Origin: a virus
Lineage: Duplodnaviria; Heunggongvirae; Uroviricota; Caudoviricetes
DNA: 37,937 nucleotides
IMG/VR virus record: IMGVR_UViG_2585427766_000015
Direction: 5' to 3' (one strand)
The notes under the pieces were generated by a model, which was given only the letters and a program-made list of their open reading frames with translations, was not told the DNA's origin and searched no databases. Made by a program: the position numbers and the translations under genes. Shown here piece after piece: positions 1,459 through 37,133 of the stretch (positions within the stretch are counted from its first letter, which is position 1; each line of letters opens with the position of its first letter).

Positions 1459-2622
1459 TTACACATCATTAGTACCTTCTTTATTTTTTGACTGGGACAA
1501 ATTTGGGACCGATGGGTTCAGGATCGAGTCTATTTGCCGTGCGTGTTCGGTAAGGTGATTAGGTGCAAGGTGAGCATATCGACGAACCATTTCGATAGAC
1601 TCCCAGCCTCCCATTTCCTGTAACACTGACAACGGGACTCCGGCTTGAACCAGCCAACTTGCCCAGGTGTGTCTCAAGTCGTGAAATCTGAAATCATCAA
1701 TACCAGCCCGTCTCAGCGCCGCTTTCCAGGCTGTGTTTGCGTCATACCGCATCTTCCTTACTGTTGGCGCTTTCGTTCCGTCTGGTTTGGTACAGCTTTC
1801 CTTGTACACAAATACCCAACGGTGATGATTCCCGATTTGTTTTTTCAATACGCGACATGCAGTATCATTCAGCGCAACGCCAATTGCGCGGTTTGATTTA
1901 CTCTCTTCCGGGTTTATCCATGCCACCCGGCGCTGCATATCTATTTGTTGCCATTCAAGGTTGATGATGTTCGAGCGTCTTAAACCTGTTGCCAGTGCAA
2001 ATTCAACAACAGACTTTAATGGCTCGGGACATTCATCAATCAGCCTTTGTGCTTCATGGGGCTCCAGCCAGCGGATCCGTTTATTCTTTGGTTGAGGCAC
2101 TTTAATAATTGGTGCCTTATCCAGCATTTTCCATTCACGCTCTGCGGCTCTTAGTAGGGCCTTTATAAATGAAAGATGCGTAGCCTTCGTTGCAACGGAC
2201 GCTGGTTTTGGCGTGTATTCTGGAACAGGTTTCCCTTTTTTTCTGCATGCTTCTGCCCTGAGTTTCCAGTTTTCCTCATGACGCCGGTTCGTCATTTTCT
2301 GCATTGCTGAATAAATTTTTGATTCAGTAATGTCTCTTAGTTGCATTCCTGCGAAATGTTGAAGCCAGAATCCGATCCGGCTTTTGTCATCGTCCAGTGA
2401 TTTTTTATGTGCTTTCTCTTCAAGCCACCTGACACACGCTTCCTCGAACGTTATATCAGGTATTTCACCAAGTTTGCTGACCCGCCATGCTTCAGCCTTT
2501 AGCATGTCATGGAGTTCTGTCGCCTGCCTTTTGTCCTTTGTTCCAAGAGACTGTTTAAATCTTTTACCGTTCGGCAATGTGAAACTGGCGTACCATATTT
2601 CACCTCTGCGGAAGAGTGACAT
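1459..2622 (-). CDS. int: Tyrosine-type site-specific integrase (P22 Int-like), 387 aa
   Basis: N-terminus [39 protein letters not shown] and C-terminal catalytic region ([15 protein letters not shown] ... RYAHL) typical of lambda/P22-family integrases; location adjacent to thrW. Confidence 0.92.
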
Positions 2623-5539: not shown

Positions 5540-6232
5540 TTAATTATGTCTCTTAAGGGTTTGCGACTGACTGATTAAGACCTTTCCAAAGACCATGAAT
5601 CGGTGTTCGTTTTCGCTAGTAATTCCCCATTCACGGTAAATCTGGTTATCAGAAATCACCAGCAGTTTGTCAGGAATCATTTGAAGTCTTTTAACGTATA
5701 TTTTGTCATCAAAACCAAAGACATATATACCATCACCATCAAACTGATTGATGCTGACATCAACGAAGATGAGATCTCCTGGCTCAATGGTTGGACACAT
5801 ACTGTCCCCACGAACGTTGATAACTTTGATGTGATTGGCTGGTCGTCCGCCGAACATTGATACAGCATTATCAGTTCTGTATTCGATGGCATGAATCACA
5901 TCAATGACATCACCGCCTTGGATAAGGCCATTTCCCGCACTGGCACTGATATCCAGCATTTCAATACGGAACACATCCTTCACCTGCGCAACATCCTCAT
6001 TATTACTGTTTTTATATACAGTATTACTTTTGTGGGCAGAGGTAAAGAGATCAGCAATATCAACACCTAAGCTCTTGGCAATATTACTCAGTGTTTGTTC
6101 GGTAAATTGTTTTTGCTTACCCGTTTCTAAGCGCGAGATGTTCGCCGCATCTACTCCTATCGCTTCAGCGAGATCGGCGATTTTCATGTTCTTCGCTTGG
6201 CGAAGTTGTCTGACTCGGTTTCCTATGTTCAT
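5540..6232 (-). CDS. CI-like prophage repressor (N-terminal HTH, C-terminal S24 LexA-like autopeptidase domain), 230 aa
   Basis: N-terminal HTH (KIADLAEAIGVDAANISRLETG); C-terminal GDSMCPTIEPGDLIFVD with downstream Lys (Ser-Lys dyad); divergent from a cro-like gene. Confidence 0.9.
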   Translation of the reverse strand: MNIGNRVRQLRQAKNMKIADLAEAIGVDAANISRLETGKQKQFTEQTLSNIAKSLGVDIADLFTSAHKSNTVYKNSNNEDVAQVKDVFRIEMLDISASAGNGLIQGGDVIDVIHAIEYRTDNAVSMFGGRPANHIKVINVRGDSMCPTIEPGDLIFVDVSINQFDGDGIYVFGFDDKIYVKRLQMIPDKLLVISDNQIYREWGITSENEHRFMVFGKVLISQSQTLKRHN

Positions 6233-6590: not shown

Positions 6591-7134
6591 GCATCACTGG
6601 AAAGTAGAAAAACAGCCTGAGTGGTACGTGAAAGCTGTCAGAAAAACTATCGCGGCGTTGCCGGGTGGTTACGCTGAAGCGGCTGACTGGCTGGATGTAA
6701 CAGAGAACGCATTATTTAACCGCCTTCGTGCCGATGGCGATCAGATTTTCCCGCTGGGATGGGCAATGATTTTGCAACGTGCTGGTGGAACTCACTTCAT
6801 TGCTGACGCTGTGGCGCAGTCTGCAAATGGCGTCTTTGTGTCTCTTCCTGACGTCGAGGATGTGGACAACGCCGATATTAACCAGCGTCTGCTGGAAGTC
6901 ATTGAACAGATCGGCAGTTATTCAAAACAGATTCGTTCAGCAATCGAAGACGGTGTAGTGGAACCGCATGAGAAGACAGCAATTAACGACGAGCTGTATC
7001 TCTCAATTTCGAAGCTGCAGGAGCATGCAGCACTGGTCTACAAAATCTTTTGCATTTCAGAAAGTAATGACGCCCGCGAGTGTGCAGCTCCGGGCGCCGT
7101 GGCGTGTCGTGACTGTGGAGAAACTAACGCATGA
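6583..7134 (+). CDS. Putative regulatory protein (CII/YdaT-like position), 183 aa
   Basis: Positional analogy (gene after cro) and vague family resemblance only. Confidence 0.4.
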
Positions 7135-11452: not shown

Positions 11453-11818
11453 GTGATGCGTGATATTCAGATGGTTCTGGATCGTTGGGGAGCATGGGCG
11501 GCGAGTGATAGTTCAGGAGTAGATTATTCTCCTATAGCTGCTGGGTTTAAAGGGCTTCTTCCCTATACAAGCAAAACACGTCAGGCTTGTTCAGATAGTG
11601 ATGCATTAATTATTGAAGGTTGTCTTGCACGTCTAAAGCAAAAAAGACCTGATGAGCATTCGCTTCTTGTGGCACATTATTTATACAGAATATCCAAGCG
11701 TAAGATTGCAAAGGCGCGTGGAAAGGATGAGAAACTAATACGCATTGAGATACAGATGGCTGAGGGGTTTATTGATGGATGCCTTTCAATTCTGGATGTT
11801 AAACTTGAAATGGATTAG
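11453..11818 (+). CDS. Putative late-gene antiterminator (phage 82 Q-like family), 121 aa
   Basis: MMRDIQMVLDRWGAWAA ... IAAGFKGL ... resembles the small Q-type antiterminators; sits upstream of the late promoter/terminator region. Confidence 0.55.
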   Translation: MMRDIQMVLDRWGAWAASDSSGVDYSPIAAGFKGLLPYTSKTRQACSDSDALIIEGCLARLKQKRPDEHSLLVAHYLYRISKRKIAKARGKDEKLIRIEIQMAEGFIDGCLSILDVKLEMD

Positions 11819-11823
11819 TGAAA

Positions 11824-11841
11824 CCCCGGCTTAAGCCGGGG
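11824..11841. terminator. GC-rich hairpin (CCCCGGC-TTAA-GCCGGGG) between the convergent Q-like and NYN genes; possible bidirectional terminator
   Basis: 7-bp perfect stem with short T-rich flanks on both strands; the NYN stop codon lies in the loop. Confidence 0.45.
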
Positions 11842-12694
11842 ATGTTTCAGATTGAAGTGTTTTTTTCTTGGGCTCGTTCTTAGATGATTTTGTTTTCTTT
11901 TGACGATTGAGTTTTTTCTCTTTGCGTCTGTCAATATAATCGTCCCACCAATCAGGTTTTACTGTTGGGACGATTCTGCAAATATCAGCAATTGCAACAA
12001 CAATGTTGCTCGATTGCACTCCATCGACGTGCTCTGCCAGTGAGGGAGGAACTTGTTGGTTCATTGGATCGAGGATAAAATCTACACCCTTTATACGGGC
12101 ATGTTTAGCGGCAGGAACGAAATCAGCATCGCCAGCAATCAGGACGATCACATCAACTAGTTTCTCATGAGCAAGGATAGTTATATCCATACCAAGCTTA
12201 ATATCGACGGCTTTTTGTTTATATTCGTAGTAGAAATCGTCGTTAGTTAACTCAGACCATTGAATTTCATTACGTAATAGTTTCTTAAGAGTATGTTCTT
12301 TTATTTGCCAGTTACCGACGTTTGAAAGAATACCCATACGAAGTGCCGTTTTACGATTCTTCCTTAGCTCCTCATGAAGCTTGTTTCGTAAAACATTCGG
12401 AGCATGTGTCTTGAAGTTTTTAGTTGATGGGGTTTTGTTGTCTCCATCAGGCAAAGGATACTTAATCTGTTTATCAAGCGGCGGGCAGTCGTAATAGTAA
12501 ATACGGTAAAGCTCAAGTGGTTCACGGTCAGCGTGAGCACCATGTCGAACCTCTACATGAAATTTAACAATTCGCCAGATTATTTTAACAAGTTGTTGGC
12601 TGTCTAACTCATGCCCAGGGAAATGTTTTCGTAGAAAGTAATCAATCCGACGGATGAAGTAGCCGCCGTCAATCAAGACTGCTGTTTTCTTCAT
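11831..12694 (-). CDS. NYN-domain (PIN-like) putative ribonuclease with Lys-rich C-terminal tail, about 287 aa
   Basis: Conserved acidic motifs of the NYN/LabA fold (LIDGGYF, VDIKLGMD, IAGDADFVPA); start taken at the ATG at 12694 (MKKTAV); the ORF track extends to a GTG at 12706. Confidence 0.8.
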   Translation of the reverse strand: MKKTAVLIDGGYFIRRIDYFLRKHFPGHELDSQQLVKIIWRIVKFHVEVRHGAHADREPLELYRIYYYDCPPLDKQIKYPLPDGDNKTPSTKNFKTHAPNVLRNKLHEELRKNRKTALRMGILSNVGNWQIKEHTLKKLLRNEIQWSELTNDDFYYEYKQKAVDIKLGMDITILAHEKLVDVIVLIAGDADFVPAAKHARIKGVDFILDPMNQQVPPSLAEHVDGVQSSNIVVAIADICRIVPTVKPDWWDDYIDRRKEKKLNRQKKTKSSKNEPKKKTLQSETSPA

Positions 12695-12706
12695 TGAAAA
12701 ACTCAC

Positions 12707-13070
12707 AAAAAAAGCTCAGAACCGTTGAGTAGACCCTAAATATTATCTACGAACAGTGCTGAGCTGGTGACGCAATAATTAACTATTGACATTTGCGTTG
12801 TCAACAAATTTTGCACTGTTTAAATGTAAATTTTTTCTGCTGTCAACATATAGTGTCATCTTTGGCATGTTGACACTATATAAACGCTTACGCGGTCCGC
12901 AAAAATAATTGTATCATGTTAAGAGTGGTTACTTCGACTCCTTCCTTAAAACCGCAGTTGAGCGGTTTTTTTGTACCTGTAAACCTGGTGCAGTACAGTA
13001 AACACGCTGGTGGTCGTGAATACTGGCTTTTTATCTTGCTGGCTTTTTAGACAAGAGTTATTGGTATGTC
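12707..13070. promoter_or_regulatory. Divergent regulatory region: NYN-gene promoter and putative late promoter, with repeated TGTCAACA/TGTTGACA motifs and an 11-bp inverted repeat (ATATAGTGTCA ... TGACACTATAT)
   Basis: Several TTGACA-type hexamers and palindromes read directly; followed by the terminator at 12948-12973. Confidence 0.4.
12948..12973 (+). terminator. Intrinsic terminator (tR'-like) upstream of the late operon
   Basis: AAACCGC-AGTTGA-GCGGTTT hairpin followed by a 7-T run; position analogous to lambda tR', where Q-mediated antitermination acts. Confidence 0.6.
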
Positions 13071-13298
13071 ATGTTAACCAGAAGGGAAAAAGACATGCTA
13101 AAACAGCAAGATATGACAGAAACCGCCGCCGTAGTCCTTCATTTCCTACCTGCTGACAAGTGGGTAACGCCACGCATGATGACGAGAACTACCGGAGTAA
13201 GCGAAGCCCGGTGCCAGTTAATACTGACTCAGTTAGTTCTGGCGGGTCTGGCGAAGGATAACGGCGGGTATGGGAATAAATTCAGACGCTGCCAGTAA
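13071..13298 (+). CDS. Small putative winged-helix DNA-binding protein (PapI/FaeA-like?), 67-75 aa
   Basis: Pattern resembles small winged-helix regulators (TGVSEARCQLILTQLVLAGLA); alternative ATG at 13095 has a better Shine-Dalgarno. Assignment tentative. Confidence 0.4.
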   Translation: MLTRREKDMLKQQDMTETAAVVLHFLPADKWVTPRMMTRTTGVSEARCQLILTQLVLAGLAKDNGGYGNKFRRCQ

Positions 13299-15923: not shown

Positions 15924-16550
15924 TCAGTTGTCAAATGAATATACGTTAAAGGTATATGTCGACATAATTTCACCAAGTACCTCAATACATACACTTTTTT
16001 TATGAAAATTACTGGGAAATGAACTTAGCTCCTCAAGACATTGCACATAAGTGCTGATATCACTTGCATCACGTTCAAGGAATTTCACTTGACCAAAAGA
16101 AGGAGTTTTAATCTTGGTTCTTTGCTGGATTATATGGATAAAGTGTGTAGTTGGTGAAACTATTACTCTTGAAATATCGGAAATGATGTCTTCTTGAACT
16201 TGCCGATAAAGTAAATCCTTTGGGTAATGGTGTTTAATCTCGATGGTTGCAACATTGCCATTATGTTCAGACGTTAATATCGACTGGTTATAAAGTGATA
16301 TGTCAACAGCGCCGATACCGAGTTTTGGATGCTCACTTAAAGCAGTTAGTGTGCTGATTTGATTGAGTATAACAACTAACTCATCACGTATTTGTGTTTC
16401 ATGTTTGCGATTGTAGAAGTAGCCATTCAGTTCATTTAACTTTTTATGCATCCTATCGTGACTAATTGCTTCGATCAGTAAATCCTGAATCATACTTTTC
16501 TCTAGATAATCCGAACGGTTGTAAGTGACAGTATTGTGCTGGCATGTCAT
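15924..16550 (-). CDS. Hypothetical protein, 208 aa (possibly 189 aa from internal ATG), AT-rich; candidate nuclease-like effector
   Basis: Downstream gene of an antisense two-gene cassette; GAVDIS ... (17 aa) ... ATIEIKHHY has the spacing of a PD-(D/E)xK core (inference only). Confidence 0.6.
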   Translation of the reverse strand: MTCQHNTVTYNRSDYLEKSMIQDLLIEAISHDRMHKKLNELNGYFYNRKHETQIRDELVVILNQISTLTALSEHPKLGIGAVDISLYNQSILTSEHNGNVATIEIKHHYPKDLLYRQVQEDIISDISRVIVSPTTHFIHIIQQRTKIKTPSFGQVKFLERDASDISTYVQCLEELSSFPSNFHKKSVCIEVLGEIMSTYTFNVYSFDN

Positions 16551-16593: not shown

Positions 16594-16947
16594 TCATCGA
16601 TAGAAAAACTTTACAGCCCACTCGTAAACAGCTTTGTAAATCGGTTCATGGTAAATACTATCGATACTATTCAGATGTGCGATCATCGCCTCCACAGTTG
16701 TAGTGGTTGTTTCTAATATTTCGATTATTGCAGGGCGGTCATCATCTTCATCGAAGTATTCGAACAGCAGTACAGGTTTACCATGCAATTCAGCATCTGA
16801 GACTCTAAGGTTACAACTACCGCTCAACTCAAAGTGAATTTTGTAATTACCTTCTACAGAATGGCCTACGGGGAAAAAGTATAGGGTGTCATCTTTGTTC
16901 AAAAGCCATTCCCATTCATAACTATTCATTTGTGAACTCCTGTTCAT
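16594..16947 (-). CDS. Hypothetical acidic protein, 117 aa, AT-rich; upstream gene of the antisense cassette
   Basis: ORF with acidic cluster (EYFDEDDDRPAIIEILETTTTT); 43-bp gap to the downstream ORF suggests an operon. Confidence 0.6.
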   Translation of the reverse strand: MNRSSQMNSYEWEWLLNKDDTLYFFPVGHSVEGNYKIHFELSGSCNLRVSDAELHGKPVLLFEYFDEDDDRPAIIEILETTTTTVEAMIAHLNSIDSIYHEPIYKAVYEWAVKFFYR

Positions 16948-36065: not shown

Positions 36066-37133
36066 TTAATGAAATTTAGTTCGGATGAATTGTTGCGATG
36101 GTTTTTCAATGAGTATATATGACATATAGCTAATTGCTATTAATGTAAGCATGAACAAAATGAATACATTGGGGCTGTAAAAAATATCGCGTCCATAGCC
36201 AATCTTGTCAGCTAAATAAACAACAATGATTTGCAAAGGAAAATGTAAAAGATAAGATGAATAACTGATATCACCCAACCATTCAATTTTCTTCCCAAAA
36301 TCGTTTCGTATTGCGCTAATTGATACAAGGAAAAAGATTATGGAGGTAAATCCGAATAAGATAATTGAGAATATGTCTGCTACTTGCAGGGTAAAAATAA
36401 ATCCCCATGAGATCAATAGAAAAACACAAGCAAAAATAAAAAATAATTTTGCACCAATATTTTTTATGACCGCAATCGTAATTTTATAGGTCAGGCCACC
36501 AATAAAGAAAGAGAATGCGCCAATCATTATGGGATTGTTAATTTTGAAAAAGTAGTACGACAATGCAACTATTAAAATTGATATGAATGTTGTTTTTGAT
36601 GTGAACTTGCATAATATAAAAAATATCATGTACATAAGTACTTCAATCGACACGGACCATGTCGGGGCGTTGAAGGACCAACCTCGCTCAAATCCCCATG
36701 ATTGAATCATCAATAAATTCAGAATGGCATGGTAAATGTCATTCATAGGATAAACAAAAAAATAATTATGACTTTTAAAGAAAATAATTTGTAATATTGC
36801 CACGACAGCAAATGTAAATATGTAAAGTGGATATAATCTACTGACACGGTTAACTATAAAAGTTTTTGCTGAGGTTTTATTGCTGTGTATGTTGTCAGCG
36901 TATAGATAAAAAAATATGAATCCAGAAATCATAAAAAACAATTCGACAGCATATAAACCGTAATGATAAAAGACGGAAAAAAATTCATAAAAAGGTTGGC
37001 GGTTTATGATTATGTCAGATGCAGCATTCTTTTTCATAAAAAAATGTTGCCAATGCCATAACACAACGGAAAGTGCGGCAAATCCTCTCAGAACATCCAG
37101 GGTATATATTCTCTTCCCAAAAACATTCGTCAC
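36066..37133 (-). CDS. Acyltransferase family 3 integral membrane protein (putative O-antigen/cell-surface polysaccharide acetyltransferase), 355 aa
   Basis: Multi-pass membrane protein with acyltransferase_3 hallmarks (LDVLRGFAALSVVLWH); very low GC; opposite orientation at the tail-fibre end of the prophage. Confidence 0.85.
   Translation of the reverse strand: MTNVFGKRIYTLDVLRGFAALSVVLWHWQHFFMKKNAASDIIINRQPFYEFFSVFYHYGLYAVELFFMISGFIFFYLYADNIHSNKTSAKTFIVNRVSRLYPLYIFTFAVVAILQIIFFKSHNYFFVYPMNDIYHAILNLLMIQSWGFERGWSFNAPTWSVSIEVLMYMIFFILCKFTSKTTFISILIVALSYYFFKINNPIMIGAFSFFIGGLTYKITIAVIKNIGAKLFFIFACVFLLISWGFIFTLQVADIFSIILFGFTSIIFFLVSISAIRNDFGKKIEWLGDISYSSYLLHFPLQIIVVYLADKIGYGRDIFYSPNVFILFMLTLIAISYMSYILIEKPSQQFIRTKFH

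Follow-up and report, generated by a model that had tools for sequence, protein, structure and literature searches.

A NYN-domain gene and its structured leader RNA form a mobile cassette in a lambdoid prophage and are co-inherited across phyla

With reference to the phage record IMGVR_UViG_2585427766_000015 of IMG/VR (Caudoviricetes), a minus-strand gene that faces the Q-type late antiterminator gene raises the question of what is carried in this gap and what it might do for the prophage. The whole stretch of 37,937 nucleotides (nt), hereafter the window, represents a prophage of the lambdoid kind whose tail is contractile; it harbors methylase, holin and tail sheath genes and a host gene at its left end. 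A preliminary description of this DNA had read the gene as a NYN/LabA-type gene with conserved aspartates, which is borne out here by the Pfam family PF01936, by the fold and by four invariant aspartate residues. The present analysis revealed that the gene is only one component of a cassette, the second being a structured leader RNA with a terminator-like U-run; neither this RNA nor the fact that the Q gap is a minority location of the gene had been noticed before. The RNA and the NYN gene are inseparable across phyla, and the features of the window on which this account is built are collected in Table 1.

The distribution of the leader was investigated in 69 viral loci and in 80 genomes, one per species, from several phyla. 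It was found just upstream of the gene and on the gene's strand in all 69 viral loci and in at least 71 of the genomes. Two covariance models cover these cases: R1, for the type found in the window, matches directly upstream of the gene in 16 genomes and 58 viral loci, while R2, for a related "broad type", matches in 55 genomes and the remaining 11 viral loci, each time on the gene strand and just upstream, with nothing above 21 bits elsewhere in about 0.8 Mb. The broad type accompanies distant homologues from Burkholderiales, Acidobacteria, Bacteroidota, Clostridia and Lentisphaera, and can be written as [A]UCC-GCCCUUGG-CAGUA[A/C]-GC-stem-loop-GC-CGAnC-CCAAGGGC-UUUU. The two types are tied together by position, by architecture and by intermediate forms (L040-L045). 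In a set of 2.9 million viral contigs, the core pattern of the window type was noticed in 28; each of them carries the NYN gene, and no orphan leader was found among these matches.

In the window, the leader lies between the promoter and the start codon as a hairpin of about 55 nt with which the transcript would begin. It folds at -22.4 to -24.2 kcal/mol (z -2.9), scores 85 bits with R1 against 20.5 bits on the opposite strand, and is present in one copy only; no tandem repeats were found in 11700-13100. When the 300 nt upstream of ten homologues, with protein identities to the window down to about 49%, were aligned, all ten cassettes displayed the same order, namely TTGAC[A/G]-17-TAnnTT, a few nt, the three-tier hairpin of about 55 nt, 7-9 U, 10-20 nt with a Shine-Dalgarno-like sequence, and ATG. 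RNAalifold recovered 17 pairs from these ten sequences, 9 of them with compensatory changes; 97.6% of the cells are paired, and none of 500 shuffles attained the covariation score. For the broad type, an alignment of 55 sequences, which was fitted to the model, has 90.3% of its cells paired, whereas shuffles have 77.3%; the score is attained by 0 of 500 shuffles, 13 of the 14 pairs are compensatory (119 cells), and the true register gives 0.416 against 0.19 or less for slid registers.

Besides the paired positions, the internal loop of the broad type harbors unpaired nucleotides, namely a G-U-A in its 5' strand and a G-A in its 3' strand, that are invariant or nearly so in 35 sequences; in the window type, the matching segments are Watson-Crick paired, and the conserved unpaired nucleotides are those of the loop CAAU.GUUA. 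The internal loop of the broad type may resemble the sarcin-ricin/loop-E module, and if it does, there is a possibility that the leader mimics the cellular target of the enzyme. The broad type also has a conserved AUC motif in two places, as [C]AUCC in its 5' tail and as AUC[C/A] in its apical loop, for instance in L073 (3903-3969) and L060 (3914-3981). Downstream of the stem, a U-run was present in all 67 loci measured, the following 9 nt containing a mean of 6.7 T and never fewer than 4, GC-rich genomes included. Upstream, in 39 of 67 loci, the -10-like boxes cluster at 12-14 nt ahead of the first paired base, which places the hairpin at the very 5' end and leaves no room for an upstream aptamer or anti-terminator. 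A mere terminator of the upstream gene was rejected as an explanation, because the hairpin is preceded in most loci by a promoter-like site of its own at a constant spacing, and because the upstream neighbor in the window is divergent. A known RNA family was rejected for the leader, since no match to it was returned from Rfam 15 at E ≤ 10 in the window region or at two distant loci, and none at gathering score on 16 loci. Taken together, the leader is very probably a real, gene-specific structured RNA.

Concerning the protein, the open frame can be followed as far as a GTG at 12706 (11831..12706, minus strand, 291 amino acids, aa), while the RefSeq start for the identical protein, WP_032252670.1, is the ATG at 12694. 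That record, 287 aa long, is already named "NYN domain-containing protein" by PGAP, and the core observation of the preliminary description is thus correct and not new. The Pfam NYN match (PF01936) reaches 39.1 bits against a cut-off of 24.2 (E 1.3e-9), covers residues 109-212 only, and is shared by all close homologues, and PHROGs assigns the protein to phrog_5783, "unknown function" (E 2.6e-109). Its PIN-like alpha/beta fold is closest to solved NYN structures, and a BFVD fold search returned only other NYN/LabA-like viral proteins. D9, D164, D189 and D191 are invariant in an alignment of 45 sequences and sit at the C-terminal ends of the core strands E3-9, E154-161 and E182-186, as the four acidic residues of the putative metal site. 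The protein is, with high confidence, a NYN-fold nuclease; it would be a metal-dependent endonuclease, most probably one that cuts RNA.

Within the NYN/LabA-like family, to which it belongs by profile, fold and acidic residues, the protein forms a distinct subgroup with extra residues and a dedicated leader. About 100 residues are added to the core: a helical segment (32-47), an insert that follows the second core strand at about 70-112, and, at the C-terminus, a helix with its basic tail. The Lys-rich tail reported earlier is therefore real, though specific to close relatives, as the family core stops near residue 226. Compared with LabA-like proteins at large (COG1432, 2qip, the NYN domain of MARF1), the members are compact, 210-290 aa, always preceded by the leader, and without OST-HTH or any other fused domain. 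Scans with Pfam, NCBIfam and PADLOC found nothing but NYN in the protein; no ToxN/AbiQ-like family was noticed, and Pfam detected no Abi_2 domain.

Table 1. Coordinates of the NYN cassette and of related features in the window
Feature	Position	Strand	Basis
NYN (LabA-like PIN-fold) nuclease gene, 287 aa	11831..12694	-	ORF (open reading frame), PGAP start and name, Pfam NYN, phrog_5783, fold, invariant Asp
Leader RNA, three-tier hairpin (paired 12713-12765) then U7 (12706-12712)	12704..12769	-	fold, covariance model R1, covariation
Sigma-70-like promoter of the cassette	12775..12804	-	-35 TTGACA 12804-12799, 18-nt spacer, -10 AATTAT 12780-12775
GC-rich palindromic hairpin between convergent Q and NYN genes	11824..11841	.	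sequence; fold on both strands
Palindromes upstream of / overlapping the NYN promoter	12787..12881	.	repeat search
Exchangeable cargo cassette, 1.07 kb (3' hairpin, gene, leader, promoter, upstream palindromes)	11819..12890		BLAST breakpoints against cdtI, GC
Q-type late antiterminator, 121 aa, left flank	11453..11818	+	PF06530 E 8.9e-52; phrog_79
Late-region start: inferred Q-dependent late promoter and initial transcript, right flank	12891..12976	+	nested breakpoints, hairpin I11, fold
Integrase	1459-2622		
CI repressor	5540-6232		

The gene had also been described as a moron, an inserted cargo gene between Q and the late region, and comparison with related phages agrees with this. Phage cdtI, which has the same Q type, is homologous up to the very stop codon of Q (11818) and again from 12891 onward, and its intervening stretch holds two unrelated genes on the minus strand, of 147 and 313 aa (orf53/orf54, L001 2542-3930). 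In the same slot, PhiR40_1 harbors a different minus-strand gene of 148 aa (L004 2106-2552) and mEp460 a plus-strand gene, and in vB_EcoM-720R4 the slot is empty, with Q followed directly by the late region. Among 5426 complete E. coli genomes, the cassette was detected in only 27, each time on the chromosome, and the prophages that carry it differ in the replication and nin regions. Because of these breakpoints, the alternative cargo of cdtI, PhiR40_1, mEp460 and 720R4, and the rarity among E. coli genomes, the cassette is read as an inserted cargo unit between Q and the late region. Its GC content of 0.36-0.43 lies below the 0.50-0.58 of the flanks. By structure it is a lambdoid moron, with expression in the lysogen and termination at the 3' hairpin as putative properties. 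The slot downstream of Q appears as a hotspot for uncharacterised cargo, filled differently across phages; the two cdtI genes have no significant NCBIfam or PADLOC match.

The flanking signals of the cassette were considered as well. Its promoter has 10 of 12 matches in a promoter scan, with a predicted start about 3 nt ahead of the hairpin, and such a promoter-like site of its own is conserved across cassettes. At the other end, the GC hairpin that had been noticed between the convergent Q and NYN genes is present and strong, folding on both strands at about -17 kcal/mol (z -4.5) with the NYN stop codon in its loop, but it lacks a U-run, was not called in a terminator scan and is not a canonical terminator. 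The right-hand breakpoints are nested according to the Q type: 12891 for cdtI, 12917 for PhiR40_1, which has a divergent Q allele, and 12959 for mEp460 and 720R4, which belong to another Q family. This is the pattern expected if a Q-specific late promoter adjoins the cassette on the right, where a conserved GTTAAGAGTGGTTACTTCG block is followed by a terminator hairpin (12948-12969) and a T-run; we infer there a Q-specific late promoter with a short leader transcript. The earlier placement "between Q and the late promoter" is thus reasonable as to position, whereas the promoter in it stands as a prediction.

It can be observed from the wider distribution that the Q gap is not the usual home of this gene. 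A word-indexed search gave 3237 matches to the NYN protein, and an exhaustive search of representatives gave 363 clusters at E < 1e-30, nearly all 210-290 aa, in which no domain fusions (as a possible sensor) were found. At least 589 matching stretches were recorded in a scan of 185,579 species (one genome each), and 456 in IMG/VR. In 56 partly de-duplicated viral loci, whose contexts were read with precomputed Pfam annotation, the upstream neighbors included 29 Peptidase_S24 and 27 HTH_3 matches. In about half of the viral loci, the gene stands directly downstream of, and co-oriented with, a CI/LexA-type repressor gene, as in Proteus phage Brookers, a Brenneria prophage and L024. Judging from these neighbors, the position after CI is the commonest in phages and the Q gap a minority position. 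In lambda, the slot downstream of cI holds rexAB.

Other contexts were found as well. In an Edwardsiella prophage, the gene, whose protein is 86% identical to that of the window, lies between another antiterminator family (PF03589) and the holin, antisense to both; in Cronobacter it is the neighbor of gtrABC and DinI where a P22-like prophage ends, in Pantoea it is found at the prophage tail end, and in Pseudomonas it is a lone chromosomal copy. Among distant chromosomal homologues, the neighbors comprise 139 Pfam families in 141 proteins, with five integrases and a handful of PADLOC matches. No conserved protein partner or operon was found in phage or chromosomal contexts. In P. brassicacearum (L007) and P. 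aeruginosa (L016), the Methyltransf_32 and amino-acid ABC-transporter genes found near the cassette are the same, the genes in between differ, and this site could be a variable hotspot of the chromosome. A C4 antisense RNA was noticed within 1 kb on the upstream side of the cassette, with its a1b1 target in Pseudomonas neuropathica (L086 2932-3115) and with isrK in Paraburkholderia adhaesiva (L098 3635-3832), which points to P1/P7-like immunity regions as a further home.

The explanation that we favor for these data is a self-contained, mobile, two-part module. Its own sigma-70 promoter would produce a transcript starting with the hairpin and U-run, which probably act as an attenuating intrinsic terminator, so that most transcripts would end as an RNA of about 65 nt and read-through alone would make the enzyme. 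The nuclease would recognise its own leader, a step that we hold to be slightly favored, because the conserved unpaired nucleotides suggest a specific binder and the enzyme is the sole factor travelling with the RNA. By this binding, the leader would limit or neutralise a potentially toxic ribonuclease, as in ToxIN and AbiF/RCd22. The module would be active in the lysogen, since the cassette lies outside and antisense to the lytic transcription units, and since the cI-downstream slot occupied in most phages is transcribed in the lysogen in lambda; this context in other phages strengthens the case for lysogen expression. In the window, early transcripts running rightward past Q would enter the NYN gene in the antisense direction. 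If the balance between RNA and enzyme were upset, for example by an infecting phage that shuts off host transcription, RNA cleavage would follow and lead to exclusion or abortive infection, with addiction to the prophage as a side effect. Our confidence falls from termination through RNA recognition, neutralisation and activity in the lysogen to release on infection, and the whole chain up to exclusion or abortive infection is put forward tentatively, at slightly less than even chances.

Comparison with known systems places this module in perspective. In the C. difficile prophage system AbiF/RCd22, a SigA promoter is followed by a conserved structured RNA, a Rho-independent terminator, a ribosome-binding site and the toxin gene, and the RNA reduces read-through 17-fold and, in cis as well as in trans, neutralises the toxin (10.1101/2025.04.15.648962). 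The NYN cassette resembles it as a prophage-borne one-protein module with the same order of elements, from which a short RNA and a read-through mRNA are expected, and by analogy AbiF/RCd22 is a closer architectural match than the type III toxin-antitoxin systems. The differences are that the toxin of AbiF/RCd22 is an HEPN-like Abi_2 protein and not a NYN/PIN-like one, that the RNAs are unrelated (no match to RF03085, the abiF motif, or any other Rfam family at E ≤ 10), and that in the NYN cassette the conserved structure is itself the predicted terminator hairpin, with one motif instead of two. ToxIN, CptIN and TenpIN likewise combine an endoribonuclease, here predicted, with an RNA directly upstream under the same promoter on mobile elements, and a terminator between RNA and gene, here predicted from the hairpin and U7, sets the ratio in those systems. 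Unlike them, the NYN cassette has no ToxN/AbiQ fold, a single hairpin in place of tandem repeats processed by the toxin, and a putative antitoxin role. The cassette is thus not a member of the ToxN-type type III or AbiF systems, yet it shares their gene architecture.

The lambda rexAB and sieB-type exclusion genes and morons such as stx, nmpC and cspB/F/I occupy the same slots, after cI or in the Q-to-lysis gap, and rexAB and lambdoid morons are likewise independent transcription units of lower GC that are absent from close relatives; their proteins and mechanisms are unrelated, and lysogen expression and exclusion are putative for the NYN gene. The PADLOC model "NYN" and HEC-09, which is Hma-embedded, share the NYN core and a defence-related context, though HEC-09 has an N-terminal helix-turn-helix-like domain and the similarity is marginal, E about 5e-4 over about 50 residues. 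A defence-associated NYN protein of B. fragilis is a Mn-dependent, non-specific single-strand ribonuclease (10.1101/2024.04.08.588522).

Several observations weigh against the module as proposed. In PADLOC-DB v2, only marginal matches were obtained (HEC-09, E 4.5e-4, and NYN, E 5.1e-4, each over about 50 residues), on which ground a known anti-phage defence family was rejected; HEC-09, the nearest tested NYN candidate and a distant one, gave no protection in the single test published (bioRxiv 10.1101/2024.01.29.577857). Searches of the open-access literature returned no paper tying the family to phage defence or toxicity. The chromosomal homologues lie mostly beside ordinary genes with few defence genes, so that guilt by association is slight outside phages. 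The R1 and R2 models do not cross-hit, and the leader is a single hairpin, whereas type III antitoxins of the classical kind are tandem repeats. Such a 5' hairpin, together with its U-rich tract, might serve instead to make the mRNA more stable or to aid ribosome loading, and termination, RNA-protein binding and lysogen expression are predictions.

Though the data agree with a toxin held by its RNA, other explanations have to be weighed. One that we consider unlikely is an autoregulated accessory ribonuclease without any role in conflict, which would process host or prophage RNAs, for example by trimming leaky lytic transcripts to stabilise lysogeny, with the leader as no more than a feedback site that it cleaves or binds. 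RNase III, RNase E and the NYN-family Regnase-1 act on stem-loops in their own mRNAs, and the joint inheritance of RNA and enzyme agrees with feedback no less than with an antitoxin. Many chromosomal copies also lie among housekeeping-type neighbors, including those near the same ABC-transporter/Methyltransf_32 genes in two Pseudomonas species, and the frequent position after cI would suit support of lysogeny. Against this reading stand the sporadic and patchy spread of the gene (27 of 5426 E. coli genomes, at least 589 stretches over 185,579 species), its occurrence in at least three different prophage slots beside unrelated regulatory modules, and its disruption by IS1 in 3 of the 27 carrier E. 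coli genomes, a pattern of dispensable mobile cargo. In these three genomes IS1 lies inside the 5' part of the gene, with the loss of the first 80 or so codons including D9; the disrupted copies are L026 2513-4005 (E. coli F5505-C1) and hits H48 and H49.

Rather less likely still is a pure addiction module, in which a stable nuclease toxin and a labile RNA antitoxin would be selected to retain the prophage or island rather than to exclude phages. The architecture is as in type III systems and AbiF/RCd22, a single gene and RNA with their own promoter are carried on mobile elements, and integrases are among the neighbors; chromosomal copies outside recognisable mobile elements are nevertheless common, known type III systems do both, and sequence cannot part addiction from the exclusion module proposed above. 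We regard it as improbable that the protein is no ribonuclease at all, being either a nuclease specific for DNA structures and directed against phage DNA that enters or replicates, or a non-catalytic nucleic-acid binder, with the hairpin as an insulating terminator. The PIN/FEN-like fold does also act on DNA flaps, but by nearest folds and by Pfam the protein is NYN, and the characterised proteins of that family, MARF1 and the B. fragilis NYN protein, are ribonucleases, and an insulating terminator would need neither conserved unpaired nucleotides (G-U-A, G-A) nor an exclusive link to one gene family. A counter-defence gene whose RNase destroys host immune RNAs (CRISPR RNAs, retron non-coding RNA, antitoxin RNAs) is conceivable in principle for a phage-borne RNase but very improbable, as nothing specific was found in its favor, the gene has a constitutive-type promoter of its own, does not lie within the early and late operons but antisense to them, and favors the cI-downstream slot, and many copies lie in non-phage chromosomes, all of which is untypical of anti-defence genes.

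The RNA-controlled nuclease module that we prefer would have several consequences. The arrangement appears not to have been described for the NYN family, and its preferred home behind the phage repressor appears likewise new; within Rfam 15, PADLOC v2 and the open-access literature searched, the family-wide pairing of a NYN nuclease with a structured leader/terminator RNA also appears new. If the leader controls the nuclease, a PIN-fold (NYN) toxin would be added to the small set of RNA-antitoxin systems. PHROG 5783, uncharacterised and present in hundreds of viral contigs and several bacterial phyla, would gain a function, and a common occupant would be identified for the cI-downstream slot of temperate phages, the home of lysogen-protecting genes such as rexAB. 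A bolder extension, that NYN and leader form an unrecognised, widespread type III-like toxin-antitoxin or abortive-infection family in which one RNA is both terminator and antitoxin, a rexAB analogue in the immunity region of temperate phages, is possible but doubtful. Whatever the function, the leader is a well-supported covarying structured RNA absent from Rfam 15, and, being short and linked to one gene, it is easily testable.

Other features in and around the cassette were also noticed. A palindrome TTGACA-N7-TGTCAA (12787-12805) overlaps the NYN -35 box, and a perfect 11-nt inverted repeat, ATATAGTGTCA/TGACACTATAT (12848-12858/12871-12881), lies between the NYN promoter and the late region; the same arrangement is displayed by the Edwardsiella cassette (L008, about 6800-6910) and partly by L023, and these palindromes may be operators or a divergent promoter. 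A sub-threshold Rfam match to STnc130 (E 0.48, minus strand) falls over the late-region terminator rather than the leader. Elsewhere in the window, two ORFs without a Pfam match, 208 and 117 aa, lie on the minus strand at 15924-16550 and 16594-16947, antisense to the late operon and immediately past the lysis genes, and may be a second moron-type insertion. At the left end, the host aldehyde dehydrogenase gene (1-1254) abuts the integrase gene, and attL is expected near 1255-1458 for this reason. Near the tail-fibre end of the prophage, an acyltransferase gene (Acyl_transf_3, E 4e-25) at 36066-37133 on the minus strand is of the type usual for O-antigen-modifying lysogenic conversion genes.

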